Shown one piece after another: positions 32,644 through 52,600 of a DNA stretch of 64,000 bases. Position numbers and translations under genes: made by a program. How positions within the stretch are numbered: the first letter of the stretch is position 1; the number at the start of each line of letters is the position of its first letter. Source of the DNA: Gammaproteobacteria bacterium. GTDB lineage: Bacteria; Pseudomonadota; Gammaproteobacteria; JADZEE01. The notes beneath the pieces are model-generated. The model ran no database searches. It had not been told where the DNA came from and saw only the letters and a list, made by a program, of their open reading frames with translations. Where the stretch lies: positions 14,545 to 78,544 of the forward strand of contig JBFXBD010000014.1 of the NCBI GenBank assembly GCA_050183625.1, in the 5' to 3' direction.

Positions 32644-33653
32644 CCGACCACGTACCCGAGGTATGCCAGGTACAGCCCGCCGTTGACTGCGAGATGCCAC
32701 ACGCGCAGCCGTCCGCGTGCGAGCGCGACGTGAAGCCAGATCGCCGCCGCGAGGGTGACGACGAAACCCGCCACGACCGCCGGGTCGGGCGACCAGGGTG
32801 TCATCGCCATGCCGATGGCGGGGAGGATCGAGCCCTGGAACACCATCGCCCCGGTGATGTTGCCGAACGCGAGCGTGTCCTTGCCGCGGCGTGCCCAAAG
32901 GATGCTGTTCACCTTCTCGGGCAGCTCGGTCGCGACCGGGATGATGAGCAGCGACAGGACCAGCGCCGACATCGCGGTCTGCGTCGACAGGCGCTCGACG
33001 CCGTCGATGAACGAATGCGCGCCGAAGATGAGCAGGCCGAAGCCGATGACGAGCTGGACGAGGATGGCCGGCCAGCCGTCGGGCACGCCCAGGCGGCACA
33101 GGAAAAGATTGGTGTGGGCCTCCGTGCCGTGCCCGTCGGCGACGAGCTGCGAGGAAGCGCGCACCGTCATCATGACGTAGAAGAAGTAGATCATCACCAG
33201 CAGGATTGCCAGCGACGCGCGCAGTTCCGCGTGCGCCGGCGGAACGAACAGCGCCGCACCGGCGATGCCGAACGCCAGCAGGAAGAAATTCAGATCGCGG
33301 CGCATGCCGGTCGGTTCCGGCCGCATCTCCCCACCGGCGCCGCGCCGTCTCAGCACCGAGAAGGCCATCAGCGCCAGCGACAGCGTCGAGAGCATGAGCG
33401 GTGCACCAAGGATCGCCCCGACCCCGATGTCGTCGCTGACGGTCGAATCGTTCGAGGCGGTGAAGAACGCGAGGATCGGCACCATAGTCTCCGGCATCGC
33501 CGTGGCCACCGCCGCGAACAGCGACCCGGTCACGCCTTCGGAAATACCGAGCCCTTCGCCCAGGTGCTCGACGGCATTCGTGAACACCTCGGCAGCGACG
33601 AGGATGATGAGCAGGGACAGGGCGATTTCCGCGCCCACGGGCATTGCGTGCAT
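32640..33653 (-). CDS. sodium/calcium exchanger family (CaCA) membrane protein
   Basis: Within ORF 32640..34190; start ATG 33653 (MHAMPVGAEIALS), giving 337 aa. Two alpha-repeat-like motifs, AVATAMPET and PVATELPEK, in a duplicated multi-pass topology. Confidence 0.75.
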   Translation of the reverse strand: MHAMPVGAEIALSLLIILVAAEVFTNAVEHLGEGLGISEGVTGSLFAAVATAMPETMVPILAFFTASNDSTVSDDIGVGAILGAPLMLSTLSLALMAFSVLRRRGAGGEMRPEPTGMRRDLNFFLLAFGIAGAALFVPPAHAELRASLAILLVMIYFFYVMMTVRASSQLVADGHGTEAHTNLFLCRLGVPDGWPAILVQLVIGFGLLIFGAHSFIDGVERLSTQTAMSALVLSLLIIPVATELPEKVNSILWARRGKDTLAFGNITGAMVFQGSILPAIGMAMTPWSPDPAVVAGFVVTLAAAIWLHVALARGRLRVWHLAVNGGLYLAYLGYVVG

Positions 33654-33688
33654 GTTCGCCTCGCCTGGAGAGGGCCGGCCCTCGGGGT

Positions 33689-34324
33689 TCAGAACAACCA
33701 GGGCGCGCCCTGGCGCCGGCGTGCCTCGTAGGCGCGGATCTCGTCCGCCGCCTGCAGCGTGATGCCGATGTCGTCCAGGCCCTGCAGCAGGCGCTGGCGC
33801 ACGCCCTCCGGGAAGTCGAAACCGTGGCGGGTGCCGTCCGGCCGGACGACGATCTTCTCGCGCAGATCGATCGTCAGGCGGTAGCCCGGTGTCGCGAACA
33901 CCTCCGTGAACAGGGACTCGACGACGTCGGCCGGCAACGTCACCGCGACCATGCCGTTGTTGCAGGCGTTGGAGAAGAAGATGTCGGCGAAGCGCGGCGC
34001 GATGACCGCACGAATGCCGTAGTCGAGAAGCGCCCAGGCCGCATGTTCGCGCGAGGAGCCGCAGCCGAAGTTGTCGCGCGCGAGCAGGAGCCCGGCGCCG
34101 CGGTAACGCGGCTGGTTGAGCACGAAGTCCGCGTTCCGCGGCCGCGCGGCGCAGTCCATGCCGGGTTCGCCGCGATCGAGATAGCGCCACTCGTCGAACA
34201 GGAACGGACCGTACCCGGTGCGCTTGATCGACTTCAGGAACTGCTTGGGGATGATCTGGTCGGTATCGACGTTGGCGCGGTCGAGCGGAACGACCAGCGC
34301 CTCGTATCTCGTGAATGGTTCCAT
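33689..34324 (-). CDS. leuD: 3-isopropylmalate dehydratase small subunit
   Basis: [31 protein letters not shown] ... GCGSSREHA. Confidence 0.95.
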
Positions 34325-34414
34325 GACTCGTGCGGCTCGCTTTCTTGCGGTGGATTCAGGCGCCGCGCCGCCGCCCGGGGCCGTCCCCGACCCGGAAGGG
34401 GCGCCCGCCCGGGC

Positions 34415-35818
34415 TCATGCGAACGTGCGGACGTCGACGAAATGACCGGCGATGCCGGCGGCGGCGGCCATCGCCGGGCCGACCAGATGGGTGCGCCCGC
34501 CGCGGCCCTGGCGACCCTCGAAGTTGCGGTTGGACGTGGACGCGCAGCGCTCGCCCGGTTCGAGCTGATCCGGGTTCATGCCCAGGCACATCGAGCATCC
34601 CGGCTCGCGCCATTCGAAACCGGCGTCGCGGAAGATGCGGTCCAGCCCCTCGCGCTCGGCCTGCTGCTTGACCAGTCCCGAGCCCGGCACGACGAGCACG
34701 CGCTTGACGCTGGCGGCACGGTGCCGGCCGCGCGCGATCGCGGCGGCGGCGCGCAGATCCTCGATGCGCGCGTTCGTGCACGAGCCGATGAAGACCTTGT
34801 CCACCGGAATGCTCGCGATTGGCGTTCCAGGCTGGAGATCCATGTAGGCCAGGGCGCGCCGGTAGCCCTCGCGGCGGATGGGATCGTCGACCTGCTCCGG
34901 ATCGGGCACCCGGCCGTCCACCGGGGCGACCATCTCCGGGGACGTACCCCAGGACACATGCGGCGCGATCGCGGCAGCATCGATCTCGACCGTGGCATCG
35001 AAGCGGGCGTCGGGATCGGACTTCAGCTCGCGCCACGCGGCGGCGGCGCGATCCCAGGCGTCGCCGGCCGGCGCGTGCGGGCGGCCGCGCACGTATTCGA
35101 GCGTGGTGTCGTCCACGGCGATGAGGCCGCTGCGCGCACCGGCCTCGATGGCCATGTTGCACACCGTCATCCGGGCCTCCATGGACAGGGCGCGGATCGC
35201 CTCGCCGGAGAACTCGATGGTGTGGCCGGTGGCGCCGGCGGTGCCGATTCGGCCGATGACGGCGAGGATCAGATCCTTGGCGGTGACGCCGGGCCCGAGG
35301 CGATTGCGCAGTTCGATGCGCATGTTCCTGGCCTTGCGCAGCATCAGGCACTGCGTCGCCAGGACGTGCTCGACGTCCGACGTGCCGATCCCGAACGCGA
35401 GCGCGGCGAGCGCGCCGTTGGTGGAGGTATGCGAGTCGCCGCAGACGATCGTCATGCCGGGCTTGGACAGGCCGAGCTCGGGACCGACGACGTGGACGAT
35501 CCCCTGGCGCGGATCGCCGACGTTGAAATGGCGGATGCCGTGCTCCTTGCAGTTGCGGGCCAGGGTTTCGAGCTGCTCGCGCGCGATCGGATCGCGGACG
35601 TTGAAGACGTCTTCGGTGGGAACGTTGTGATCCGAGACCGCGACCGTTGCGTCCGGGCGCCAGACCGGACGTTGCGCGAGCATCAGGCCCTCGAAAGCCT
35701 GCGGCGTGGTGACTTCGTGGATGAGGTGCAGATCGATGTAGATGAGCGTGCCGCCATCGGGCAGCTCGCGCACCACGTGCGCGTCCCAGAGCTTGTCGTA
35801 CAGGGTGCGGCCCGGCAT
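34415..35818 (-). CDS. leuC: 3-isopropylmalate dehydratase large subunit
   Basis: [49 protein letters not shown] aconitase-family motifs. Confidence 0.95.
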
Positions 35819-35852
35819 ACGGCGTTCACCACGAATTCAGGGAAAGAGCGGC

Positions 35853-35858
35853 ATTATA
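35853..35858 (-). promoter_or_regulatory. candidate -10 box (TATAAT) for leuC
   Basis: ATTATA on the plus strand equals a perfect TATAAT on the minus strand, ~35 nt upstream of the leuC ATG (35818). No good -35 element seen. Confidence 0.3.
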
Positions 35859-35935
35859 GCGCCGCGCGCAACGGAACGTTTCGCGGCGCCGGTGCATGCG
35901 CTAGCATGGCGCGCCCGCCACAGGAGGATGAACGC

Positions 35936-36445
35936 ATGTTCCGCAGGATCCTGCCCGCCGTACTGGCTACCGCCCTGCTCGCGATCGCGGCGCCCAGCCG
36001 GGCCGATTTCAACGACGGCGCGGTCGCCTATTCGATGGGCGACTACGAACGTGCACTGCAGACGCTGCGGCCACTGGCGGAAACCGCCAATCATGCGTAC
36101 GCGCAGTACTACCTGGGCGTGATGTACATGAACGGCCAGGGCGTGCCGCAGGACTTCAAGCAGGCGGCGAAATGGTTGCGCTCGGCGGCCGAGAAGGGCG
36201 TGTCGTCGGCGCAGAGCAAGCTGGCCCAGCTCTACATCGACGGGCGCGGCGTCCCCAGGGACATGGAATTCGCCTTCGCCTGGCTCAGCACCTCGGTCAA
36301 GCTCGGCAATGCCCGGGCCGCGGCCATGCTCGAACAGGCGCGCGCGAAAATGAGCGCCGGCGAGCTCGCCCAGGCCGAGAAACTCGCCGCGGAATACGTC
36401 GCCCGCTACGGCACCGTGCCGAAGGAAACCAGCCGGGCGCAGTGA
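35936..36445 (+). CDS. Sel1-repeat (TPR-like) exported protein
   Basis: Last 169 aa of listed ORF 33644..36445. AGGAGGA RBS at 35922-35928. Signal peptide MFRRILPAVLATALLAIAAPSRA. Sel1 repeats YYLGVMYMNGQGVPQDFKQAAKWLRSAAEKG and KLAQLYIDGRGVPRDMEFAFAWL. Confidence 0.85.
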   Translation: MFRRILPAVLATALLAIAAPSRADFNDGAVAYSMGDYERALQTLRPLAETANHAYAQYYLGVMYMNGQGVPQDFKQAAKWLRSAAEKGVSSAQSKLAQLYIDGRGVPRDMEFAFAWLSTSVKLGNARAAAMLEQARAKMSAGELAQAEKLAAEYVARYGTVPKETSRAQ

Positions 36446-36609
36446 ACCGGACTCAGACAGCCACGTCCACGTAGCGCCCCGGCCGGCGCGGGTCGTCCGC
36501 GCCGCTCATGCGCAGGATCAACGCGGCGAGCAGCGCGGCCGGACCGGAACGGCCGGCATGGGTACCGGCCGGCAGCCCGTCCGCATCTTCGACCGCCCGC
36601 CGGCGGCGC

Positions 36610-36635
36610 GGCGTATCCACCCGGGTGGATACGCC
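36610..36635. repeat. perfect 26-bp palindrome in a 484-bp non-coding convergent spacer
   Basis: GGCGTATCCACCC|GGGTGGATACGCC. Other hairpins lie nearby: 36485-36503, ~36551-36572 and ~36672-36688. Confidence 0.8.
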
Positions 36636-36860
36636 GGGCAGGGCCGGTCCGCCGTTCGGAATCGCCGGGCCCGATCGGGGCCGGCCCGACGGGCCGGGGG
36701 CCAGAGGGTTGAAGACGCGCATTTTTCCCGGGGCCCAGGCCGTTCGTGAGGGTTTCGGCGGCAGGACTGCGGCTGCCGCGCGGATGCGGGCGCCAGCGTA
36801 CCGGCAATGCCCGCGGGCGAATGCCTCGGGCTGCCGCTTGCGGCGACTTGTGACAATTCT

Positions 36861-36878
36861 TTGCCGGCGGGCCGGCAA
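36861..36878 (-). terminator. possible stem-loop terminator downstream of the SapC-family gene
   Basis: TTGCCGGC GG GCCGGCAA hairpin ~50 nt after the SapC stop on the minus strand. No clear U-tract, so this call is weak. Confidence 0.25.
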
Positions 36879-36929
36879 AGTCCAGGCGCCGGGCGGCAGG
36901 GCCTGACCGGCATCAAGCCCCGTGAGGGA

Positions 36930-37661
36930 TCAACCGAGCTTCTGCATCAGGCCGGAGAGGTTGGACAGCGACAGCAGGTGGGCGTAGACGAGATCCATGA
37001 ACCCGCGCCCGACGAGATCCTGCAATCGCTCGCCCGGCAGCGATTTCAGGCGGTCCCGGCTTACGCAGGAGAACCCGGCGAGCGAGAACTTCTCGCCGGT
37101 CTTCATCTCCACGTTCGCCTGCACCGGCTCGAGCAGCGCCAGTTCGACCAGCAGCCGGCAGAACTCGGTCGTGACCTGCGTCTGGCGCTGATAGTCCTTG
37201 AGGAACTCGACCGACCGCGCCAGCAGCGCTCCGTGGCTGCCGTCGTCGTTGATCAGCCGCTCGCCTTCCTTGACGGTATTGAACCCGGCGTAGCTCTCGT
37301 CGATGCAGACCGTGAAATTGGCTCCGGTGGAATCCGCGGCGAGGATGAACGGATAGCGCCGGACATAGGCCGGCACGTAGCTGCCCTTCCAGGTCCCGTC
37401 GGCGGCGAGGAACAGGTTCTGCTCGGGCTTCAGGCCCAGCAGCACCACCGGTACCACTGCATCGCCACCCGCGGCCGCGAATACGATGGCGTACTCGCGT
37501 GCGGCCACCGGGAACTCGATGCCCGCCACGTAGACGCAGTTGGTCCTGGCCGCGAATCGAAAGCCCGGATCCGGGTCCACGTACCAGGCGCCATGCCGCT
37601 CGCGCGACAGTGGCACGACCTTGCGGTAGAACAACGGCAACTGCGGCTGCGGCTCGGCCAT
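36930..37661 (-). CDS. SapC family protein
   Basis: 243 aa. LPLFYRKVVPLSRERHGAWYV, NCVYVAGIEFPVAAREYAIVFA, YVPAYVRRYPFIL match my recollection of the SapC (PF07277) family. The ATG lies 13 nt after the TpsA stop, and a GGAG RBS sits inside that gap. Confidence 0.75.
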   Translation of the reverse strand: MAEPQPQLPLFYRKVVPLSRERHGAWYVDPDPGFRFAARTNCVYVAGIEFPVAAREYAIVFAAAGGDAVVPVVLLGLKPEQNLFLAADGTWKGSYVPAYVRRYPFILAADSTGANFTVCIDESYAGFNTVKEGERLINDDGSHGALLARSVEFLKDYQRQTQVTTEFCRLLVELALLEPVQANVEMKTGEKFSLAGFSCVSRDRLKSLPGERLQDLVGRGFMDLVYAHLLSLSNLSGLMQKLG

Positions 37662-37674
37662 CGGAACTCCAGGG

Positions 37675-40600
37675 TCAGTAGCTGCGCAGCGCGCGCGGCA
37701 TCGTCAAATCGCCGGTGAACACCACCGGGCGCATGGCACCGGCGTCGAACCAGGGCCACGCATTGACGTCGGCCGACGGCACCGGAACCATCGGAGTCGC
37801 ATCGGCATCGTCGAACTCGCCGCCGGAGCCCTGCTTCGGCGCGGGTGCCGGAGCCGGCGCGGGCGCCTCCGGAGCCGTCGCACCGGGCTCGGGCTGCGCG
37901 CCCGCGGGCGGGTTGCCCTCCTCCGGCACGTCCCCCGGCGGGCTGCCGCCATCGTCGAATTCCCCACCCGGGGCGGCATCGTCCGAGCCGCCGGAACCGT
38001 CGTCGAACTCGCCGCCACCCTCGTCGAACTCGCCCGCGCCCTCGCGTTCGCTGAACGCGGCAAGCTGCTGGCGCAGGGCCTCGAATCGTGCAATCTGCTC
38101 CCGGAAGCCGGCGATGAGCTTCTCGACCCGCTCCGGATCCTCCTTGCCGGCGGCACGACGCTGCTCGAGCTCGGCGATGTTCGCCTGGATCTTCTCGACC
38201 AGCGGCCCGATTTCGTCCTCCGTGATCGCCGGGCCGCAGCCCTCGAGCTCTTCGCACTGTTCCGGCGGCATGCCGATGGCGAAGCCGATCTGGCCGATGA
38301 GTTCCAGCTCCTGTTCGAACACGCTGATGTCGATGAAGCCTAGCTGCGCCAGCGCCTCCAGGCCGGTGCTGATCAGGCCGAGGAAACCCTGGACCTGCCG
38401 CAGGTTGGAGAACACTTCCGCGCCCAGCAGGTTGCGCAGCGACTGCACCAGGGCGAGATCGTCGCTGTTGAAGGCGGTCGCGTTCGCGCTCGAGGAGGCC
38501 TCGAAGCGCGGCTGCTCCGCGGTGGAGGAGGCCGCGATGTGCGCCTCGCCTCCGCTCAGGTCCAGGCGGATATTGCTGCTGTTGGCGATTTCGTTGTTGG
38601 CGATGATGGTCGCGAAACCGGCTTCGAGCACGGCCACGCCGGCCGCCGGCCCGGTGATGTCGCCGGGGCCGTCGGCCACTGCCTGGCCATTGGCATCCTG
38701 GCGCACCCCGACCGCGATCAGCGTCAGTGCATCGCCGCGCGCGCCGCCCGCGCTGAGGCTGGCATTGAGGTCGATGTTCGCCGCCAGCAGCGTCAGCGGC
38801 CCACCCGAGCGCAAGCCATCGTTGACGGTGATGCGGCTGGCGGTCAGCGCGGTGACGTTCTGTTCCTCGGCCGGCGACTCCATCGGCTTTTCCAGCGCAC
38901 CGCCGATGATGAGGTGGCCGGTGAAGCCGTTCCAGATATTGCCGGGGATGCGGCTCGCCAGGTCACCGGCGTTGGCAATGGTGAGCGTCGCGCCAGCGGC
39001 CGGCACGATGGCCAGGTTGCCACTGCCCAGCATCACCGCCGGGAATACGATGGTGCTGTTGCTGGAGCGCAGGATGACGTCGCCCGAGACGTTGACCGCG
39101 GTTGCGTTGAACGCCAGCGTCGCGGCCGAGATGTCGTTCGACAGGGCGACCGCGCCGGCGGTGAAGCTCAGGCCCGCGTTCGGCTGGTCCGTCATCGGGC
39201 CATTGATGGCGATGTTGCCCGCCCCGGCGTTGAACGCCACCGCGCCGGTACGCGTGATGGTCGCGCCCGGTGCGCCAAGCACGAGATTTCCGCCGCCGGT
39301 CGTAACCGCATTCAGGCCGGCGCCGGCAAGAATGTTGAGGACCGGTGCGATCAGGTTCGTCGCCCCGCCGGCGCCGGAAATCGCGCCGTTGAGGTTGATG
39401 GTGCCGGCGTTGACGTTGAAATTGCCTCCGTCGTAGCTCACCGCCTGGTTGATTGCGACCGCCGCCCCGCCGGCGTCGATGTTGGCATTGCCACCACCGC
39501 CGGCGGTGTTGATCCCGCCATTCAGGGTGATGCCGCCCGGACCGGACAGTGCAATCGAGCCGCCGGCGGTCGTCAACGTCCCGGCGGTGGTGGTGATCGC
39601 ACCGCTGGAGATCACGTTGAGGTTATTGGCGCCGGTGTTCACGCTCGAAGCGATGCTGGTCGCGCCGCCGCGGATCGTCAGGATCCAGGGCAGGACGGCC
39701 GGGGCCGGAGCGCCGATATTGACGTTGACCGCGCCGCCATCGGCCCGGCCGATCACCAGGGAGCCGATGCCGCCGATCGCGGCGAGATCGTTGTTGCCGA
39801 CCGTGAACTGGCCGGCACCGGAGCCGATGCCGACGGTCGCGCCGGCCGCCGCCGGCTGCAGCGTCAGCACGCCGGTTCCGGCGTAGGTCACCCCTGCACC
39901 GAAGGTGACGTCCACCGCCGATATCGTGCGGCCCGCGCCGCCGTTGGCGACGTTGCCATTGAAGGTGACCGTGCCGCCGGTGCTCGTCAGGTCGCCGAAC
40001 AGGTTCTGGATGGTGCCGCCGTAGGTCTGGTCGCCCGAGGTCGTCACGGTACCGAACTGCATCGCCGCACCGTTCAGCGTCAGCGTCGTCAGCGGCGCCG
40101 TGTTGCCGACGTTGCCCAGCACGATCTGGCCGGCGCCGCCGTTGGCGGTCGCGGTCAGGCTGAACGCACCGTTGACGTTCTCCAGCGGGGCGAGAATGGC
40201 ACCCGCGCTGGTCAGCGTACGGTTGCCGGTAAGCGTGATTGCGTCGCCGTCGGCGAGGCCGGCCAGGCCGATGTTGCCGACACCGGTCGTGACGTCGCCG
40301 TTCAGCAGCAGGGCGCCGCCGCCGATGACGTTTACCGTGCCGACGTTGACCGTCTCGATCTGGATGGTGCCGGTTCCCGCGTTCAGCGCCAGCGTGCTGC
40401 CGGCACCCTGCACGGTGGTATTCGTCCCGCCGTTGGCACCCAGGTTCAATGTTGCGCCGGTTGCCGAGGAATCGAAGGTGACTGCGCCGGTGAGATTCAC
40501 CGTGGCCGCATTGCTCAGATCCAGTCCGCCGGTCGCCACGGTTCCGGTCGGTGTCGCGCCGTCGTTGGTCAGGCCGTTGATGGCAATGACGTTGTTGTCG

Positions 40601-43600
40601 AAATTGAGAGGGATGCCGGCGGCGGTCGACAGGCCACCGACGTTGGCATTGATGCCGGCGGCGAAGTTCACCGCCGTTGCACCGTCGATGGTCAACTGGC
40701 CGAGCGGGCCGCCGATGATGGGTATCGCACCCGTACCGAGGCTGCCCAGGAAGTCAATCGCGCCGGTCGCGCTCAGGCGCACGCCGTTGAACTCGTTGAT
40801 GGCGCTGGACAGCGTGCGCTGGAACTCGATCCTGCCGCCGGTGGAGGTGATCTGTACGCCTGCGGCCACCGGCGCGGTCGGATCGACGATCACGTCGTTG
40901 TTGAAGATGAGATCGCCGTTGACGGTGATCGCGTTGGTCACCACCTGCGCGGTGCCGGTCAGCGTCAGGCTCGGTCCCGGCAGGATGGCGGACGGACCAT
41001 TCACCGAGCCGCTCAGGCGGATGATCCCCAGCGGCGTCTGCAGTTCGAGCGGGTCGTGAACGCTGATCGCGCTGAGATCGGCGTCGATCAGGTGCGAACC
41101 GGTCACCGGTGTGCCGATGATGATCTTGAGGAACCCGTCCTTGATGGCGGCGAAATCGGTCGGCGAGATGTCCACCGTGCAGGTGCCGAGGCAGGCACTT
41201 GCCGGGCTGCCCAGGCCGATGCTCGCGCCCACGGACAGGGAGCGCAGCGTGATGGTGCTCGCGCCGGGCCCCGGCGCGACCGCGGTCGACCGGACCGAGT
41301 CGACACCACTGGTGATGGCGATGTCGCCATCGGCGGCGACCTCGATGTTCTGCCCGTCGACGACCTGGATGCCGGTGACGGTACCGATGTCGTCGGTGAC
41401 CGAGCCGATCGTGACGCCCGACTGATCGAACACCTGGAGCGAGCCGCCGGCCATGTCGGCCGCGATCGTCGTGAAGTCGTTGTTGACGTCGGCGAGGACG
41501 ACGTTGGCGCCGGCGCGGATGAGCAGGCCGCCGACGATCTGCACCGAACCGGTCTGGGTGATGCCCTGCGCGGTGTTCAGGCTGAGCACGCTGGACGCGA
41601 ACTGTGGCGGCGCGGCGATGGTGCCGAGCGTGATCGCGCCCGAATCCGCCTTGCCCAGGCGCACGTTCTGGGCCCGGATCGAATCCGCCTTGGCGATGTT
41701 CAACGCGCCCGCGCCGCCGGACAGGCCGATGGTCACGGCCGCCGAAGTGGGCTCGATGCGTACGCGAGTTGCTGCGCCGGAGCCGATGCCCGAGCCGCCG
41801 ATCTGCGCGGAGGCGACGACGGTGCCGGAATCCCCCGTGAGATCGATGTTGCCGGTGGACAGCACCGCGGAATTCGCCTGCAGATCGATCGCGCCCGTGC
41901 CGGCGTTCAGGGTGACGGTCTGGGCATTGCCATTGACGACGTTGCCGGTCAACACCGTGATGCCGGTGGCGTTGGCGGTAAATGCGCCGGTGGACACCGA
42001 GCTCAGCAGGTTCAGGGCCCCGGCACCGCGCAGGCTCACGCGTCCGCCGGCCGTGGTCGTCGTACCGACCTGCGCGCCCGCGGCGAAATCCAGCGCGTCC
42101 GCACCGACACCTGCCGCGCCCTCGATGTTGCCGGCGGCGGTCAGGAGGATGGAGGTTCCGGCAGTGATGTCGGCCAGGTTGTCGTTTGCGTCGTCGACGA
42201 TCGTGCCGGTCGTGGCCGTGAGCGTCGCGCTGCCGGCGGCGGTCACCGTGCCGACGACGATGTTGCCGGCGTCGCTGGTAACGGCGAGGTTACCGGCGCC
42301 GTTCTGCACCAGGCTGGTCAGGGTCAGGCCGTCCGTCTCGCGCAGCAGCAGCGGGCCGTTGTTGGCGGTCGCGGTGATGCTGGCGACCGTGGTGCGCAGG
42401 GGGAGCCCGCCGATGCCGAGCCCGGCGGTCAACTGCGCGTCGGTGGCCGTAATGCCGGCGCCGCCGCCTTCGGAAATGGCGCCGGTCGTGGCATTGAGCG
42501 TGACGACGTCCGGTGCCGACACGGCGACCACGGTGATGTCGCCCGCGGCGGCGTTCACGACGACGTCGTTGCCGGCGCCCGCGGCGTTCAGCGAGGTCAG
42601 CACGATGCCGTTCTGCTCGGCGACGAAGATGCCGCCCGCGCCCGCATTCGCGGTCAGTGTGGTGAGCGAGGTTCCGATCGGGTTGGCGAGCGTGCCGACG
42701 GCGTTGGCGGCCGTCAGGATGGCGTTGGACGCCGTGATGAAGGTCGCGCCGTTGCCGTCGTCGACGATGCCGCCGCCGGTCGCGTTCAGCGCCACCGCGT
42801 TCGGCGCGTTCACGGTGCCGACGGTGATGTTGCCGGTCGCCGCCGACACGGAGATGTCGTTGCCGGCACCCGCAGCCGTCACCGTGCCGATGACCAGCGC
42901 GTTCGCCTCATTCACGAACACGCCGCCGGCGGCGGCCGAGGCATTCAACGTGCCGACGTCTGTGTCGATGTCGTTGACCGCCAGGCCGATGCCGCCATTG
43001 GCAACCAGGTTGGCGCTCTGCGCCGTGATGCCCGTGCCGTTGTTGCCGTCGTCCAGGATCGAGCCGAACGCGTTCAACGTCAGGTTGCCGTTCGCGAGCG
43101 TGATGCTGTCGACGATGATCCCGTCCTGCTCCTGGAACTGGGCGTCGCCGGCGCCGGTGACGGCAGCGGTGATGCGAAGCACCTGGATTTCCAGCGCGTC
43201 GGCCGCGCCGATACCGGAGCTGGCGCCCAGCATTGCACCGCCGATCAGCGCGGAGATATTGGAAACCGCGCCGTTGCCGTCGATGATCGCGCCCGAAGTG
43301 CTGGTGATGCTCACCGCCGCATTCACGCCGCTGGTGCTCACCAGGCGCCCGAGCGTCACGCTGCCGTCGGAGAGCAGGGTAATGGTGCCAACGCCGGCGT
43401 CGAACAGCGACACGCCCATCGTGACGGCGCCGCCGTTGTTTCCGGCGGCGTTGTCCGCGGTGACGGAGATGTCCCCACCGCCGCTCGTGACCACGGCTGC
43501 GGCACCGAACTGCGCATGGCGATTGGCCGTGATGGTCACCGCGCCGGTCGCGGAGATCTGGTCGTTGACGACGATGTCGGTGGCCGCGCCCGCGGCCGCC

Positions 43601-46600
43601 TGCTGGTTGATCGTCACGGTGGTTCCGGCCTGGACCGTCGCGCCGGCATCGATCAGCACGCCCGCCGTCGGTACGGTGGCGGTGGGGTCGAAGATATCCG
43701 AACCGGTCATGAGCAGCGAACTGCCGGCGAGCACCTGTCCCGCGGGCTTCACCCAGATTCCGCCGCTGCCGTCCGGCGCACCGCCGACCGTGGGCCCGTC
43801 CTGGCCGTTGTCCGCGAGCAGTTGCAGGCTCGACCCGCCGGTCGTCTGCACGATTGCGTTGATGATGATGTCGCGGTCGGCGGCGATGCCGAAATTCACG
43901 TTCTGGATGACGTTGGCGTTGATGACGACGTCGTCGCCCGCGCCGTTCAGCGTGATGTTGCCGCTGCCGACCGAAGGATTCACGTTCAGCGTGATGCCGC
44001 CGCCGCCCAGCGTCAGCGTGCCGGTGGCTGCGCCCTGGGTGGTGAGCTGGCCGTTCACCGCAATGGAGGTCGCCGACACGGTGATGTCGCCCGTGGTCGT
44101 AATCGCCTGGCTCAGGTCCTCGGCGCCGGCGCTCGCGATCGTGAACGAAGCCAGCGGCGTCGTGCCGCCGACCGCGCCGGTGAACTGCACGACCCCCGTT
44201 CCGGCCGTGAGCGTCAGCGCCTGCGCGCCGTCCACGGTCCCGAGGACGATGTTCTTGTTCGAGGAAGTGATGCTCACCGCCCCGCCCGAGAGCTTGGTCG
44301 GGCCGAACGTCATCTGGTTGAAGCCGGTTCCGGTCCAGGTCAGGCCGTCGAGCTGAACGTTCGCCAGCGCGGTGGCGGTGTCGCCCGTCGCGAGCGTCAC
44401 GTTGTCCTCGAAGCGCAGCGTCGTTCCGGCGCCGCCGACGATCCCGGAATTGGCGCCGAAAGTACCCTGGAGGCTCACCAGCCCGGTGACGCCTGCCGCC
44501 ACGTCCAGGGCGGCGCCCGTGCCGCTGCCGAGATTGCTCACGGCACCGGCAACCGTCGTCGTTCCGGCGCCGATCCCGGCCACCAACGCCAGGTTCTGGC
44601 CGCCGCCCGCGATCGACGCGATCTGGATATTGCCGCCGTTGGAGTTCAGGGTGACCGCGGCGCCGGAGAGCGTGGTGGCGCCGAAGTCGATGCCGTCGAA
44701 GCTCGACCAGTTCAGGCCGTCCAGGCGCACCGTGCCGGCAATCGCGGTCGCGGTGTCACCGTCGGCGAGCGTCACGTCGCCGTCGAAGCGGAACTGGCTG
44801 GTTGCGCCGGGCGCGGAAATGCCCGAGGTGCCGGCGAGCGTGTTCTGGAACCGCACCAGCCCGGTGACGCCGTTGGCCACCGTGAGCGCGGCACCGGTGC
44901 CGCTGCCCAGGCCGGTGACCGCGCCGGTGAAGGTGGTCGTGCCGGAACCCACGCCTGCGGCCAGCGTCAGGTTCTGGCTGCCGCCGGTGAGCGAGGCGAT
45001 GGAGATGTTGCCGCCGTTGGAATCGAGCGAGACGCTGCCGCCGGAGAGTGTCGTCGCGCCCAGGGTGATCCCGTCGAAGCTCGACCAGTTCAGCCCGTCG
45101 AATTGCACCGTCGCCAGGGTGGTCCCGGTGTCGCCATTGCCCAGGGTGACGTTGCCGTCGAAGCGCAGCGAGGTACCGGCGCCGGCGGTAATGCCCGAGG
45201 CGCCGGCGAGCGTGCTCTGGAACCGCACCAGGCCGGTGACGCCCGCCGCGACATTCAGCGCCGGGCCGGTACCGTCGCCGAGGTTCGTGACCGCACCGGT
45301 GAAGGTGGTCGTGCCCGCGCCGATGGCCGCGCTCAGCGCCAGGTCGTTGCCGCCCGCATCCAGCGTGCTGCCGAACAGGATGTTGCCGCCGGCGCTATTG
45401 AGCGCCACGGCGCCGGTGAAGGTCACCGCGCTCTGGAAGGTGATGTCGTCGGCCGTGGTGGTGATGTCCGCGGCGGTCGACACCGCGCCGGTGCCGTCCT
45501 GCAGGAAGGCGCCGTCCAGGGACATGTCCGCCGCCGCGGCGAGCGCGAGCGTACCGCTGTTGGTGAACGTCACCGTGCCGTTGCCGGCGGTCGCAATCGA
45601 CTGGCTGACCGTGATGTCGCGCGCGGTGACTGCGAGGTTCTGGATCTTGGTGCCGTTGCCGATCTTGCCGCTGAAGGTCACGTCGCCCTTGCCCGCCTTC
45701 ACGGTCAGGCCCTGCGCACCGGCCGCGGTGGCGTCGATCGCACCGGTGAAGCTTGCGTTGCCGCCGCCACCGACGCCGTCATCGGTGTTCACGGTGACCG
45801 GATTGATGCCGAGCTTGGTGGTCGTCGCGTCGACCGTGGCCGCGCCACCGCCCGATACGAGGTTGCCGTTCAGCGTGATCGTCGTCGCCTTGAGCCCGAT
45901 CGCGCCGCCGCCGGTGTTGATGCCGCCAGCCGCGATGGTCAGGGTGTTGGGACTGCGAAGCTGGATCGCGCCGTTGCCGGTGCTGGTCGCGGTGACCTGC
46001 GAGCCATTGGCGAGATCCAGGAAGGCATCGCCCGGCCCAGGGCCGCGGATGTTTCCGCCCGCGCTCAGCGTGATGAGGCCGCCGGCAGTGATGTCGGTCG
46101 TGGTGTCGTCGGCATCGTCGAGGATGTCGCCCGCGGTGGCGGTGACGTTGACGGTGCCGGTGGTGGAGATCGCGCCGATGAGCGCGTTGGCCGCCTGCTG
46201 CACCAGCGCGACGTTGCCGGCGCCGCCGGTGGCGACGTTCCAGGTCGTGTTGCCTACCCCGCCGGTCGAGGTGACCGCGACGTCGTTGCCGCCGGTACCG
46301 GTGATGGTCAGTGCACCGACGTTGACGATGAGGATGCCGTCCGCGTTGTTGGTGCCGTGCCCCACGTCGGGGTTGGTATCGGTATTGTCGATGCCGATCG
46401 TCCCCGCCGAGGTCAGGGTCAGCGTGCCGCTGGTCTGGAACGCCACGCCGCTGCTGTTGTCGCGGATGAGGCCGTTGGCGGCGTTCAGCGTCAGGTTCTG
46501 CCCGCCGCCGCCGAAGGCCGGCGCGGTGCGGTCGATGACGATGTCGCCGCCCGTCACGTTCACGGTGATGTTCTGCGACGAGAACAGCGCCGCCATCTCC

Positions 46601-49600
46601 GCGTCGTCGAAGGCACGCGGCTGGCCGACGCCGGAGCCCACGCGCGGCGCCGAGCGCGGCGGGCCGGTGATCGCGTCCGTGCCCAGGAGCACGTCGCCGA
46701 CGAAGTTCAGTGTCAGGTTCGCGCTGATGATCTGCGGAATGCCGGTGATCGTGTTGTTGTCCAGGTAGTCGGCGCTGCCGTCCATGAAGACGTTGTCGAC
46801 GCTGACCGAACCGGCCGCCGCGCGCAGCACCGAGTTCACTGCATCACCGAGCGGATCGCCGGGCGTGGGGATGTGGCTCGGAGGAATGCCGGGGGTGCGC
46901 TGGCCGTCGTTGAGCACGGTGAAGCCGCCGGTGGCGACGTCGGTGACGATATTGCCGGTATCCGCCTGCACGGCGCGCTCGGCGACGTTGTAGCCGGGAT
47001 TGCCGACCACGTTCGTCGTCGTCGAGCCCAGGTTCGGCAGGCCGGTGGTGACCACGGCGATGTTCGCGTTCAGGGCCGTGCTGGTCAGGACGATGTTGCC
47101 CGCCTGCGCCAGGATGTTCGATTCGATCCAGATCGAGTAGTTGTTCGCATCCGTGCCGGCTTGGGAGCCGCCCGCCGACACGTTCATGGCGTCGGTCACC
47201 GCCTGCCCGCGCAGGATGATGTCGCCGCCGGCGGAATCCGTCGGGCCGCCGGGGTTGAAATCTCCGATTTCCACGCCAAGTTCAATGAACCCGGACGCCG
47301 TGGCCGCGAGCGAGTTGGCGATGAAGGCGTCGGCCGTCAGCGCCAGGTTCTGCTTGATGGTATCGGCGATGCTGATGCTGAAGTTCTTGACCGTGGTGAT
47401 CTTGACGTCGCCCAGCGGTTGGACGGTACCGACCCTGGCGCTGAAGGTCACGTTGCCGCTGCCGGCGCCGACCGTCAGGTTGCGTGTGAAAGGCGCGTCC
47501 CCGTCCACCGTGCCGCCGCTGGCGAACAGCAGGTTGTTGTCGGTGGCGCCGTCGGTATCGACGGTGACGTTCTGACCGAGCACGACGCCACCGGTGAAGG
47601 TCAGCGTGTTGCCGCCCTGGTCGTCGACCTGGAGGGTCTGCGCCGCGGCGGCGTTGAAGTTGATGGTCTTGGCGGTGGCGTCCAGGTCGGCCAGCGCGCC
47701 ATTGCCCCCGGTGCCGACGTTGCCGGAGAAGTTCACCGTGCCGCCCGACGCGCTGACGCTCAGCGTCCGGTCGTTGACCGTGCTGTCGTCTGCATTCACC
47801 GTCGAGGTGAACGAGACCGTGCCGCCGTTGTTCGAGTTGACCTGGACGGCGCCCCCGAGGACCAGCGGCCCGTTGAAGGCGACCGTGCCGCCCGTGCCGG
47901 TGGTCGTTCCGGCGCCGCCGGAGGCGTCAATCGTGCCGGATACCACGGCGATGTTCGGGCCTGCGTCGATCGTGATCGCGCCGCCGTTGCCGCCGGCGGC
48001 ACCGGTGCCGTCGCCGCCAATCGCGGTCGCGTTTGCCACTCCAATCGTGCCGACGGCGGCGGTCAGGCTGATGGTGCCGGCCGCGAATCCCGCACCGGCG
48101 CCATTGTCGGCGCCGCTGGCATCGATGCTGCCCGTGAGGACGAGATCGCTCGCCGCGCCCGTGGCCGCGATGGATATCGAGCCTCCGGCGCCCGCCCCGA
48201 CCGATTCGATCGTGTTGCCGGCATTGGCGATGTCGCCGGCGGCGGTGATCGTAATCGCACCGCCCGCGGTATGGATGCCACCCGCGCCGACGTTCAACGC
48301 ACCCAGGCCGCGCAGCCGGATCAGCCCGCCGGTGGAAGACGCCGTCACGGAGGAACCCGCCGCGAGGTCGAGGAAGTCGTCGGCAAATGCCTGGCCGTCG
48401 ATGTTTCCGCTCGCGGACAGCGTGATCAGGCCACCGGCCGTGATGTCGGCGATCGTGTCGCTCGCGTGGTCGCTGATGGTCCCGGCAGCCGCGGTCACGG
48501 ACACCGTGCCGGTGGAATCGATGCGCTGGATGAGCGCGTTCGCGGCCGACTGCGTGATCGTCACCGCGCCGACCGCGGCGGTGACGCCGATGTCGTAGGT
48601 AGTGTTTCCGACCGAACCGACGTCGGTCATGAACACCGCCTGGCCACCACTGTCGAACACGCTGACGGCGCCGACGTCGACCGTCAGCGGATTGCCCCCG
48701 GTACCGATGGCACCCGCGTTGGTCTGCATCAACAACTGCCCGCTCGCCGATACGGTCTGGAACGCGGTACCGACACCCGCATCGGTAATCGTCTTGCCGG
48801 CCGTCTCCGTAACCAGGAACAGGTTCTTGGCGAATGCCGTTGCGCGGTCGATGATGATATTGCCGGCGACGGCGATGATCTTGATGGTGGGCTGGACGCT
48901 CGCGCTCGCCGCCAGCGCGTCCATCTGCAGATCCGTCAGGGTGATGGTCGCCGTCGAATCATCGCCCAGATGGACGTCGCCGGTCTTGAACTCGCGCGTG
49001 AATACGCTGGAGACAATCTGCGGGAACTTGATGTCGTCGAGCTTGTTGCCCAGGACGTAGTCGCCGTCGCCGCTAAGACGGACTTCCGTCAGCACACCGC
49101 CGTTGGCGACCAGCCGCGTGTTCTTGCCCTGGTTCGCCAACGTCGAAGCACCGACATTGGCATCCTCGAGGCGCACCCGCGCGCTGCTGCCAAGCAGCGA
49201 AATCGTGATATTGCCGTTGCCTGCGGTGACGTCCCGGTTTTCCGGCAGATCGCCGGCGCCGCCGGCCCCTGCGCCCGTCATGCCGGTGACCGAAACGCGC
49301 ACGTCGTTGCCGCTGCCGGTGGAGGTCAGGGCGATGTCGCCGTTCGTGGCCGTGATGCTGGCCTGGATCAGGATGGCGTCGGCGCCGCTGGCGCCGCTGG
49401 TGGTGAGATCCAGCGTGTTGCTGCCGTTGGTGCCGGTCAGTTGCACCGGCCCGCCCGTGCCGCCGGCGCCGCCGAAACGGACGAACCCGGTCAGCGTGCC
49501 GGACTTCAGGGTATTGGCGACGAATTTGTCGTCGATGAGCAGGTCGCGCCCGCTGCTGACGAGCACGTCGCCGAGCGCGACCGTCCCGCCCACCTCGCCG

Positions 49601-52600
49601 GCGACGCTGATGTCCCCGGTACCGGCCACGAGCGTCAGGTTCTGACCACCGTCGACCGTGCCCGTGAAGTTGATCGCGCCGTTGTTCGAAGTCAGCGTCA
49701 CCGCGCCGGAAGAGAGCGTCGTGTCACCGAAGCTGATGCCGTCGAAGCTCGACCACGCCAGGCCGTCGAACGTCACCGTCCCCGCCAGGGTCGTGCCGGT
49801 ATTGCCATTGCCGAGCGTGACGTCGCCGTCGAAGCGCACGGCGGATGTGGAGCCGGCAGCGGAGAGGCCGGAATTCGCTCCCACCGTGCCCTGGAAGCGC
49901 ACCAACCCGGTGACGCCGTTCGCCACCGTCAGCGCCGCGCCGGTGCCGTCGCCCAGGTTGGAAACATTGCCGGTTACCGTCGTGGTGCCGGACCCGACTC
50001 CGGCCGCCAGCGTCAGATCCCGGCTGCCGCCGTCGATCGACGCAATCTGAATGTTGCCGCCGTTGGAATCCAGCGTGACGTCCGCGCCCGAGAGCGTCAG
50101 CGCGCCGGTGGTCAGGCCATCGAAGCCCGACCAGGCCAGGCCGTCGAGCTGCACCGCAGCGAGCGTCGTGCCGGTGTCGCCATCGGTCAGGGTGACGTTG
50201 TCGTCGAAACGCAGGCTGGTCCCGGCCTGGGCATTGATGCCCGAATTGGCGCCGAACGTGCCCTGGAACCGCACCAGCCCGGTGACGCCGTTCGCCACCG
50301 TCAGCGCCGCGCCGGTGCCATCGCCCAGCGCGCTCACGTTGCCGGTCACCGTCGTCGTGCCGGCACCGATGCCGGCCGCCAGCGTCAGATCCCGGCTGCC
50401 GCCGGCGATCGAGGCAATCTGAATATTGCCGGCGTTGGAATTCAGCGAGACGTTGCCACCCGACAGCGTCAGCGCGCCGGTCGTGAGCCCATCGAAGCCC
50501 GACCAGGTCAGCCCGTCGAAGGTGACGGTGATGAGCGTCGTGCCCGTGTCGCCGTCGGCCAGCGTCACGTCGTCGTCGAAGCGCATGATCGTGCCGGCCT
50601 GGGCCGTGATGCCCGAGTTGCCGCCGAACGTGCCCTGGAACCGCACCAGACCGGTGACGCCGTTCGTCACCGTCAGTGCCGCGCCGGCGCCATCGCCGAG
50701 GTTGGCGACGTTGCCGGTCACGGTCGTCGTGCCGGCAGCGATGCCGGCCGCCAGGATCAGATCCCGGCCGCCGCCTGCGATCGAGGCGATTTGAATATTG
50801 CCGCCATTGGAATCGAGCGTGACGTCCCCGCCCGACAGCGTCAGCGCACCGGTGGTCAGGCCGTCGAAGCCCGACCAGGCCAGGCCGTCGAGTTGCAGCG
50901 CGGCGACCGACGTCGCGGTATCGCCATCGGCCAAGGTGACGTCGCCATCGAAGCGCAGGCCGGTCCCGGCCTGGCCATTGATGCCCGAGTTGGCGCCGAA
51001 CGTGCCCTGGAACCGCACCAGCCCGATGACGCCGTTCGTCACCGTCAGCGCCGCGCCGGTGCCATCGCCCAGGTTGGATACATTGCCGGTCACCGTCGTG
51101 GTGCCGGACCCGACTCCGGCCGCCAGCGTCAGATCACGCCCACCACCGGCGATCGAGGCGATCTGAATGTTCCCACCGTTGGAGTTCAGCGTGACGTCGC
51201 CGCCCGAGAGCGTCAGCGCGCCGGTGGTCAGGCCATCGAAGCCCGACCAGGCCAGGCCGTCGAGTTGCACGGCGTCCAGCGTCGTGCCGGTGTCGCCATC
51301 GGTCAGGGTGACGTTGTCGTCGAAGCGCAGGCTGGTCCCGGCCTGGGCATTGATGCCCGAATTGGCGCCGAACGTGCCCTGGAACCGCACCAGCCCGGTG
51401 ACGCCATTGGCCACCGTCAGCGCCGCGCCGGTGCCATCGCCCAGCGCACTCACGTTGCCGGTCACCGTCGTCGTGCCGGCACCGATGCCGGCTGCCAGCG
51501 TCAGATCCCGGCTGCCGCCGGCGATCGAGGCAATCTGAATATTGCCGGCGTTGGAATTCAGCGAGACGTTGCCACCCGACAGCGTCAGCGCGCCGGTCGT
51601 GAGCCCATCGAAGCCCGACCAGGTCAGCCCGTCGAAGGTGACGGTGATGAGCGTCGTGCCCGTGTCGCCGTCGGCCAGCGTCACGTCGTCGTCGAAGCGC
51701 ATGATCGTGCCGGCCTGGGCCGTGATGCCCGAGTTGCCGCCGAACGTGCCCTGGAACCGCACCAGACCGGTGACGCCGTTCGTCACCGTCAGTGCCGCGC
51801 CGGCGCCATCGCCGAGGTTGGCGACGTTGCCGGTCACGGTCGTCGTGCCGGCAGCGATGCCGGCCGCCAGGATCAGATCCCGGCCGCCGCCTGCGATCGA
51901 GGCGATTTGAATATTGCCGCCATTGGAATCGAGCGTGACGTCCCCGCCCGACAGCGTCAGCGCACCGGTGGTCAGGCCGTCGAAGCCCGACCAAGCCAGG
52001 CCGTCGAGTTGCAGCGCGGCGACCGACGTCGCGGTATCGCCATCGGCCAGGGTGACATCGCCGTCGAAACGCAGGCTGGTACCGGCCTGGCCATTGACGC
52101 CCGAGTTTGCGGCGAACGTGCCCTGGAACCGCACCAGCCCGGTGGCACCGTTCGCCACCGTCAAGGCCGCGCCAGCGCCGTCGCCGAGATTGGTGACATT
52201 GCCGGTCACCGTCGTCGTGCCGGCACCGATCCCGGCCGCCAGCGTCAGATCGTGCGGTCCGGTCAGGGTCGACTGGAAGGCGATGCTGCCGCCGCCGCTG
52301 TTGATCGACAGGGAGGTCGCGAGCACCACCGGCGCCGAGAACGTGATATTGCCCGTAGTGGCGATGTTGCCGTTGAGCGTCGCCGTGCCGGTCGCGCCTG
52401 CGCCCTTGCCCGTGGTCGTGACCGACAGGCCGGTCAGCGCCGCTGGTGTACCGACCGCACCCAGGGTGACGTTGCCGCCGTCTTCGTCGGCGTCGGCGCT
52501 GTCGGCGCTGGTATCGATCACCAGCGTCTGCGCGCCGCTGACTGCCGAGGTACCGAACAGCACGTCGCCGGCCGCGGTCGTACCGGCGGCCGCATCGGTA

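Follow-up and report, generated by a model that had tools for sequence, protein, structure and literature searches.

In this study, we describe a gene of the SapC family (Pfam PF07277) which directly follows the giant exoprotein gene of a two-partner secretion (TPS, type Vb) system in a 64,000-nucleotide stretch of gammaproteobacterial DNA (contig JBFXBD010000014.1, positions 14,545 to 78,544), referred to here as the window. Similar pairings were found at other loci with giant exoproteins of type Vb, type Va and type I secretion, and sapC is very probably functionally tied to the giant exoprotein system. As to the role that SapC plays there, we tentatively put forward, by analogy with known modifiers of exported proteins, that it may be an enzyme installing a post-translational modification on the exoprotein precursor. 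A bolder form of this proposal, possible but speculative, is that SapC would be a cytoplasmic enzyme of new fold which adds a novel modification to giant β-solenoid exoproteins before export, serving types Va, Vb and I alike, in which case many 'two-partner' systems would become three-partner ones.

The three genes tpsB, tpsA and sapC all lie on the minus strand of the window, a strand left unstated in the initial annotation of this DNA. The tpsB gene (54775..56604) encodes an Omp85-type TpsB transporter of 609 residues, recognised through the Pfam domains ShlB (E 5.1e-20) and POTRA_2 (E 2.1e-9) and with no match to any NCBIfam model. After a gap of 144 nt, tpsA (37675..54630 in the list of open reading frames, ORFs) encodes a giant exoprotein of 5,651 residues, whose TPS secretion domain (residues 62-305, 53716..54447) matches PF05860 (E 4.5e-37) and TIGR01901 (E 2.5e-23) and whose translation carries the NPNGV motif. 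With an N-terminal TPS domain in TpsA and a cognate Omp85-type TpsB with POTRA encoded alongside, the gene content is that of a type Vb system, and TpsA is predicted to be secreted. Behind a signal-like N-terminus and the TPS domain, the protein continues as a long repeat shaft rich in Gly, Ala and Asn and closes with a conserved C-terminal region (approximately residues 5100-5651, 37678..39333) which aligns with the giants of related loci. In the gamma clade, this region is the sole part of TpsA that could be aligned with those giants, over their last 330-550 residues and at 30-37% identity. It contains a Cys pair (C5459/C5465, in QCEELEGC), acidic GGEFDD repeats and a Pro/Ala-rich stretch, and ends in a conserved extreme tail, ...TGDLTMPRALRSY, with the pattern ...GD[LI]xxPxxxRxY-COOH. 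No Pfam family was found for the C-terminal region, and a protein search with the C-terminal 551 residues gave one match, low-complexity words having saturated the candidates.

The sapC gene (36930..37661) opens with an ATG and encodes 243 residues. On the coding strand, the junction reads tpsA stop TGA-CCCTGGAGTTCCG-sapC ATG, the 13-nt spacer (37662..37674) containing a Shine-Dalgarno GGAG (37667..37670) located 5 nt before the ATG; both the gap and the GGAG within it, as reported in the initial annotation, could be read directly in the sequence. The start codon agrees with the alignment of homologues, which opens at the same conserved PLFY motif. The obvious reading of this arrangement is that sapC would be the third gene of a tpsB-tpsA-sapC transcription unit, possibly with a small ORF as its next member, and would be co-transcribed with the two genes before it. 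From the same arrangement we infer, as was suggested earlier, that translation of sapC may be coupled to that of tpsA.

Recurrence of this linkage was assessed by scanning one genome per GTDB species, which gave 598 SapC-encoding stretches, the best 80 of which were used. For each locus, with flanks of +/-10 kb, ORFs were called, neighbours were clustered and hidden Markov models (HMMs) were built from confirmed members. At 21 of the 80 loci, a giant ORF homologous to the TpsA-type giants of the window lies on the same strand and no more than two genes from sapC, with the proviso that giants running off the 10-kb flanks were not all checkable for a TPS domain. TpsB is encoded within four genes of sapC at 8/80 loci, and the nine TpsB matches in the +/-10 kb loci all lie at most three genes from it. 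Considering either partner, 25 of the 80 best loci carry a homologous giant ORF or TpsB near sapC, and three further cases (L007, L013 and L018; labels L001-L106 denote the SapC or TPS loci examined) are partly visible. The survey of TpsA/TpsB neighbours that had been called for in the initial annotation thus gave a clear answer, the adjacency not being unique to this genome. A search in the reciprocal direction, with the TPS domain of the window, detected a close, 52%-identical TPS-domain homologue (P0283) with a SapC gene towards the 3' end of its tpsA, in a locus with the order tpsB, tpsA, a 164-residue ORF and SapC, the tpsA of which is split into ORFs of 500, 986 and 1838 residues by frameshifts in a long-read assembly.

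Pfam confirmed both the TPS and the ShlB/POTRA_2 domains in L021, L031, L034 and L067, and two gene orders, tpsB-tpsA-sapC and tpsB-sapC-tpsA, were seen among the linked loci. The former occurs in a Desulfobulbus metagenome-assembled genome (MAG), where the SapC-linked TpsA has a TPS region sharing 48% identity with that of the window, and the latter in a Smithella MAG and a Rhodoferax MAG, all three being Pfam-confirmed; two MAGs of free-living Chlorobiaceae (L026, L034) have tpsB-ompH-sapC-tpsA. In L028, L031, L054 and L067, sapC comes straight after tpsB, L054 having no adjacent TpsA. Two cleanly annotated plasmids, Azospirillum argentinense p2 and Thalassospira marina pCSC3H3, carry the trio under the RefSeq/PGAP names 'ShlB/FhaC/HecB family protein', 'filamentous hemagglutinin N-terminal domain-containing protein' and 'SapC family protein'. 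Their giant genes are 17.9 kb and 14.0 kb long, respectively, with N-termini matching our custom TPS HMM at ~1e-96, and none of the genes flanking these loci is shared with the window. The gap between giant and sapC is 45-46 nt on these plasmids, 24 nt in L003 and 2-4 nt in L004, L087, L102 and L106. In a neighbour-joining tree of SapC, the linked genes fall into three separate groups interspersed with unlinked ones, namely a gamma-proteobacterial group which includes the window, a mixed group of beta/zeta-proteobacteria, Desulfobacterota and Chlorobiaceae, and an alpha/beta-proteobacterial group, to which the Azospirillum and Thalassospira plasmids belong. Taxonomically, linkage of SapC to type Vb systems extends over gamma-, beta-, alpha- and zeta-proteobacteria as well as Desulfobacterota and Chlorobiaceae.

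The association of SapC is wider than type Vb and covers type Va autotransporters and type I substrates too. On Agrobacterium tumefaciens pAt1, SapC follows a classical autotransporter of 5,368 residues (PF03797 β-domain, E 1.4e-48); on a Yersinia ruckeri plasmid (L097), an autotransporter gene (AC_1, PATR) and then a weak OmpH-like gene precede it. In a Sulfuritalea MAG (L032), a TolC-type gene and the gene of a DUF4347 giant come after SapC; in Rhodobacterales the genes behind it encode HlyD-type adaptors (L058), with a giant gene nearby, and in Rhodobacteraceae it is found beside a LEPR-XLL giant. A Campylobacter plasmid has SapC directly before a type I ATP-binding cassette (ABC) exporter, HlyD and TolC. 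More distant paralogues are found in TonB-receptor/halogenase loci.

The protein itself is an ordinary member of a known family; what appears new here is its systematic pairing with type V systems. In the HMM search proposed in the initial annotation, SapC of the window matched the full PF07277 profile (profile positions 1-220 of 220, residues 18-238) with 223.4 bits, against a gathering cut-off of 28.9, and an E-value of 3.5e-66, which settles its family membership. At E <= 0.01, PF07277 is the only Pfam match in SapC. The family comprises 5,829 clusters at 50% identity (E <= 1e-3) and is essentially always single-domain, nearly all of the best 150 cluster representatives being 230-290 residues long; at 243 residues, the protein of the window falls within the ~240-270 residues of a single-domain member. 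It has a mass of 26.8 kDa and an isoelectric point of 6.0. No signal peptide or N-terminal hydrophobic segment was found in SapC, the N-terminus being polar and conserved, and its sole hydrophobic stretch (residues 59-77) forms a confidently modelled buried β-hairpin. Because it has no export signal, SapC should be cytoplasmic.

Conservation was judged on 84, and later 94, aligned family members. E49, Y95, P97, Y103, P104 and S231 are invariant in 94/94 sequences, down to ~25% identity, and N82, R101, D121 and H228 are nearly invariant in the same set. The protein of the window retains all of these family residues, i.e. E49, N82, Y95-x-P97-A-x-x-R101-x-Y103-P104-F, D121, H228 and S231. An AlphaFold2 model built from a 32-sequence alignment has a mean pLDDT (predicted local distance difference test) of 86.8 and a pTM (predicted template-modelling score) of 0.79, and no relative of SapC was detected in the PDB either by fold (Foldseek) or by sequence profile. 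As stated in the initial annotation, no function is assigned to the family: NCBIfam holds nothing for SapC, and Iyer et al. 2010 (PMC2938197) only predict, from the conservation pattern, 'an uncharacterized enzyme'.

According to the mechanism that we propose, SapC would assist the giant exoprotein as an accessory factor located in the cytoplasm, acting on the exoprotein precursor before it is exported; genes of its subfamily travel with very large β-solenoid exoprotein genes regardless of the export route. Action on the precursor in the cytoplasm is suggested because SapC has no export signal and because what the linked loci have in common is an exoprotein of very large size and repeat-rich sequence and not a particular secretion route. 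SapC may then modify the precursor by an unrelated fold and an unassigned chemistry, following the logic of three groups of known proteins: HMW1C/EtpC are type Vb glycosyltransferases, Aah/TibC are type Va heptosyltransferases, and HlyC/CdiC are lysine acyltransferases for RTX toxins and CdiA, in type I and type Vb secretion. Like SapC, these passenger modifiers are encoded by small accessory genes in large-exoprotein operons and have no signal peptide; they act before export, and the HlyC/CdiC family serves substrates of different export routes, as the contexts of SapC suggest for it. However, their families and folds are unrelated, SapC belonging to none of HMW1C/EtpC, Aah/TibC or HlyC/CdiC by sequence or by fold, and the likeness is therefore one of logic and not of membership. 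The cytoplasmic location of SapC, TpsA as its target and catalysis are all points that we infer.

The alternative with the most to be said for it, possible but on the doubtful side, is that SapC is a dedicated cytoplasmic holdase or piloting chaperone which binds the nascent giant, keeps it unfolded and competent for export, and passes it on to Sec or a type I ABC exporter. SecB acts in this way on Sec preproteins as well as on HasA, a type I substrate. SapC is linked to giants of three export routes and has no signal peptide, the location of sapC straight after the tpsA stop fits a 1:1 production of the two proteins, and genes of periplasmic chaperones co-occur (OmpH/Skp in Chlorobiaceae and a weak OmpH-like gene in Y. 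ruckeri). Nevertheless, SapC belongs to neither the SecB family nor its fold, its model resembling no PDB chaperone, and the family has many invariant polar residues. Across the gamma clade, SapC is 52-72% identical while the passengers of its partner TpsA have diverged past BLAST detection, an unusual situation for a substrate-specific chaperone and its presumed client, and other SapCs occur in TonB-dependent receptor/halogenase sugar-uptake loci and as orphans, where no giant client lies close by. An enzyme is somewhat favoured over a holdase because of the invariant polar and aromatic residues, the slower evolution of SapC relative to its partner and the orphan and nutrient-locus paralogues; a self-contained activity is what would be expected for such orphan and TonB-dependent receptor/halogenase-linked SapCs. 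The prediction of an enzyme by Iyer et al. 2010, made independently, points the same way. Among the roles offered in the initial annotation (chaperone, modifier or retention factor), retention is the least likely, because a protein with no export signal should stay in the cytoplasm.

The remaining explanations have to account for the same contexts. It is improbable that SapC works on behalf of the outer-membrane partner (TpsB, the autotransporter barrel, TolC or the TonB-dependent receptor) and not of the passenger, for instance in the handling or modification of a β-barrel precursor. An outer-membrane β-barrel gene is indeed the one element common to every context class, and sapC lies directly after tpsB in the four loci listed above, including the one with no adjacent TpsA; however, sapC borders the 3' end of tpsA and is separated from tpsB by 14-18 kb both in the window and in the majority of gamma and alpha loci, it is not obvious how a protein of the cytoplasm would reach the site of barrel assembly, and L087/L088 have no barrel gene within 10 kb. 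We consider it still harder to credit that SapC is a regulator of the giant gene, as a DNA- or RNA-binding factor or a feedback sensor. The top non-significant Foldseek matches include the winged-helix proteins PadR, AbfR2 and TFIIE, with ~75 residues aligned, and sapC precedes the giant gene in the tpsB-sapC-tpsA order, whereas Pfam detects no DNA-binding domain and the invariant residues (Tyr, Pro, Glu, Asp, Ser) are spread across both halves of the protein with no basic recognition helix. Equally low is our estimate for sapC being unrelated to TpsA, as a mere synteny neighbour or a gene co-carried on a mobile island. The gamma stretch of giant, sapC, Sel1 and leuCD is syntenic, so that these cases are non-independent, orphan SapCs exist, and SapC survives where the giant gene is disrupted; against this, the linkage is seen again in unrelated genomic settings and in different phyla, replicons and gene orders, with the genes closely spaced on one strand, and ~31-35% of the surveyed loci are linked where well under 1% would be expected for a random gene if a genome has a few TPS loci, the latter being a rough estimate and not a computed value. 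Least credible of all, and rejected here, is a CdiI-like immunity protein or antitoxin directed against a toxic C-terminus of TpsA. The cdiI gene lies immediately 3' of cdiA, a giant TpsA-type gene, and the position of sapC immediately 3' of tpsA matches it. However, TpsA of the window has neither a VENN/ELYN-type pre-toxin motif nor a toxin domain recognised by Pfam, and the downstream gene is a strongly conserved SapC and not a polymorphic immunity gene, which also separates the locus from CdiBAI systems; moreover, the places where SapC is found include the upstream side of tpsA, the vicinity of autotransporters and of type I systems, and loci for sugar uptake.

Several observations weigh against SapC being a modifying enzyme of the exoprotein. 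The giants associated with SapC share no motif across clades, the gamma and the alpha/beta clades each having their own conserved C-terminal motif, and no common modification-site motif was found across the SapC-linked giants. No informative domain fusions were found, the longer proteins tested among the best 150 representatives carrying only PF07277. The position of sapC right after the tpsA stop, with synthesis in a 1:1 ratio, would be fitting also for a protein that binds its partner stoichiometrically. In the two related genomes L087/L088 (5625-9998), an insertion sequence (DDE_Tnp_1) has cut the giant gene to pieces of 526 and 423 residues while sapC is intact, and some SapCs, the orphans, have no secretion-related or giant neighbour; taken together, these cases indicate that SapC is not strictly dependent on an adjacent exoprotein. 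The best 80 loci of the survey are the nearest relatives of the query and not a random sample of the family, and the sequencing runs that contain the window are DNA only, the organism being an uncultured bacterium from a landfill metagenome.

It is useful to place the locus beside related systems in which SapC, or a comparable exoprotein, has been described. The family is named, as the initial annotation stated, after the Campylobacter fetus sapCDEF locus, and the SapC / type I ABC / HlyD / TolC order of the Campylobacter plasmid is in keeping with this. The family is the same as in the window, and so is the placement of the gene, on the same strand and directly beside the export machinery of a large surface protein; a Campylobacter SapC also keeps E49, Y95, P97, Y103, P104, D121, H228 and S231. 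In contrast, the C. fetus system is a type I exporter (ABC, HlyD, TolC) of S-layer proteins with a C-terminal signal, whereas the window has Sec-dependent TpsB/TpsA, and its sapC is adjoined by tpsA/tpsB, the small ORF, Sel1 and leuCD and not by type I ABC, HlyD and TolC genes; identity between the Campylobacter SapC and that of the window is 31% over only ~62% of the Campylobacter protein. Iyer et al. 2010 (PMC2938197) placed SapC in neighbourhoods of TonB-dependent receptors, tryptophan halogenases and JmjC proteins. Loci of this type encode members of the same Pfam family, with E49, N82, Y95, P97, Y103, P104, D121 and S231 kept in a Pseudoalteromonas example; they encode no giant exoprotein, however, and their SapCs, distantly paralogous to that of the window (24.7% identity over 65% of the query), belong to a setting of nutrient uptake, as in one case where the gene is flanked by galactosidase genes.

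Full-text searches for SapC with two-partner secretion, PF07277 or 'SapC family' found no literature joining SapC and two-partner secretion, in agreement with the earlier impression that a pairing with type Vb had not been described. The nearest report is a preprint (bioRxiv 10.64898/2026.03.19.712371) on Chlorobium chlorochromatii, in which Cag_662 (sapC) adjoins the giant FHA-like symbiosis genes Cag_663/Cag_665, is co-expressed with them and is proposed to have a role in export. The preprint reads the system as TolC/HlyD type I secretion and reports no TPS domain, whereas the window and the Chlorobiaceae loci L026/L034 have a TpsA/TpsB pair. As regards the exoprotein, TpsA of the window resembles Bordetella FhaB, the partner of FhaC and prototype of the type Vb adhesins, in having a TPS domain, a long β-helical shaft, a Pro-rich C-terminal stretch and a conserved extreme C-terminus. 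The Pro-rich region and conserved end give its C-terminal layout a resemblance to the FhaB prodomain, although the two C-terminal regions belong to no detectable common sequence family. We know of no SapC gene in the Bordetella fha locus.

Homologues of SapC that are 52-72% identical to that of the window are abundant in metagenomes. In every gamma contig inspected (L001-L006, L087/88, L102, L104), the giant gene or its remnants is followed 2-123 nt later, mostly 2-38, by SapC, after which there is often a small ORF, then a Sel1 gene on the opposite strand and leuCD; the order SapC, Sel1 and leuCD is seen in L001, L004, L087, L102 and L104. Since the gamma-clade loci are syntenic, they count as one lineage. 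L087/L088, with no tpsB within 10 kb, have the small ORF, Sel1 and leuCD intact.

In the window, the small ORF after sapC (36453..36722, minus strand) has 89 residues from its ATG and up to 141 if translation starts at a TTG at 36878. A GC-rich hairpin with a perfect 8-bp stem, TTTGCCGG-CGGG-CCGGCAAA, with a T-run on neither strand, is located at 36860..36879, 50 nt past the sapC stop; as it overlaps the TTG of the 141-residue version, the ATG at 36722 is favoured as the start. Homologues of 82-110 residues are found directly 3' of sapC in L004, L008, L009, L012-L016, L087 and L104. Their C-terminal motif, LLxxMxxxM(G/S)GAxxxxxxGxYV(D/E), is conserved and their N-terminal part is variable and Arg/Pro-rich. 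In the gamma clade, the transcription unit probably includes the small ORF as its fourth gene. No promoter-like site was found in a signal scan of 36000..38500, and the single terminator-like match in this interval lies inside sapC and is within shuffle expectation, which fits the proposed transcription unit. Downstream of the sapC region, a convergent Sel1-repeat gene (35900..36445, plus strand; Pfam Sel1, E 5.5e-21) is followed by leuC (34415..35818) and leuD (33689..34324), both on the minus strand. A 933-residue ORF (33644..36445, plus strand) is an over-extended frame typical of DNA with 69% GC, antisense over leuC and leuD, and only its last ~170-180 codons constitute the real Sel1-repeat gene.

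In some loci (L012-L016, L018, L103 and L106), an ORF of ~164-197 residues intervenes between the giant and sapC. Those of L014, L016 and L018 show detectable homology to the part of the C-terminal region of TpsA with the Cys pair, and those of L012 and L014-L016 carry their own signal peptide; the ORFs of L103 (~190 residues) and L106 are grouped with the others on position and size alone. Judging from these sequences, the intervening ORF resembles a secreted paralogue of the C-terminal subdomain of TpsA more than a piece of a split gene, because the upstream giant keeps its own copy of the subdomain. No Pfam family was found for these stand-alone C-terminal-domain paralogues, nor for the small ORF after sapC. 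Genuine splitting of ORFs is seen in L105 (8040-21416) and L106 (8037-20071), where the POTRA_2 and ShlB domains of tpsB fall on separate ORFs and tpsA is broken into three, most likely through frameshift errors of long-read assemblies. Precomputed domain lists for such loci are consequently incomplete, the TPS domain residing on a separate piece of ~470-500 residues. The giants of L004 and L102, for which precomputed Pfam shows only PATR, might be taken not to be TpsA; this view is countered by the split TPS pieces of the comparable L105/L106, and L004 and L102 themselves presumably have such pieces too.

Other genes are also found close to sapC in particular lineages. An OmpH/Skp-family periplasmic chaperone gene (E ~1e-21) lies between tpsB and sapC in the two Chlorobiaceae MAGs (L026:9459-9995 and L034:5102-5668), and a gene for an OmpH-like lipoprotein (L097:6332-6859; 27.8 bits, below the cut-off) lies between the autotransporter gene and sapC in Y. 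ruckeri. On a plasmid of Pseudomonas canadensis (L095:9711-9971), a DUF6447 gene (PF20045, E 7.5e-9) is separated by 11 nt from the sapC that follows it. A Rhodospirillum rubrum plasmid likewise encodes a DUF6447 family protein (L093 24486-25703), and the same plasmid has sapC by ABC transporter genes and RTX-type proteins. On an Aminobacter plasmid (L094 1-12744), SapC is downstream of a hypothetical protein of 4,158 residues, three 'tail fiber protein' genes and a GNAT acetyltransferase, a giant context of unassigned route.

Two-partner secretion is defined by two proteins, and the accessory factors known for it are limited to a handful of model systems. The proposal made here would provide a first testable function for SapC, a family of ~5,800 clusters at 50% identity whose predicted fold has no solved relative, and cultivable and manipulable carriers are available in Azospirillum, Thalassospira, Agrobacterium and the Yersinia ruckeri plasmids. 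If the proposal is true, a conserved third gene would be a general component of giant-adhesin biogenesis, recurring across several phyla.

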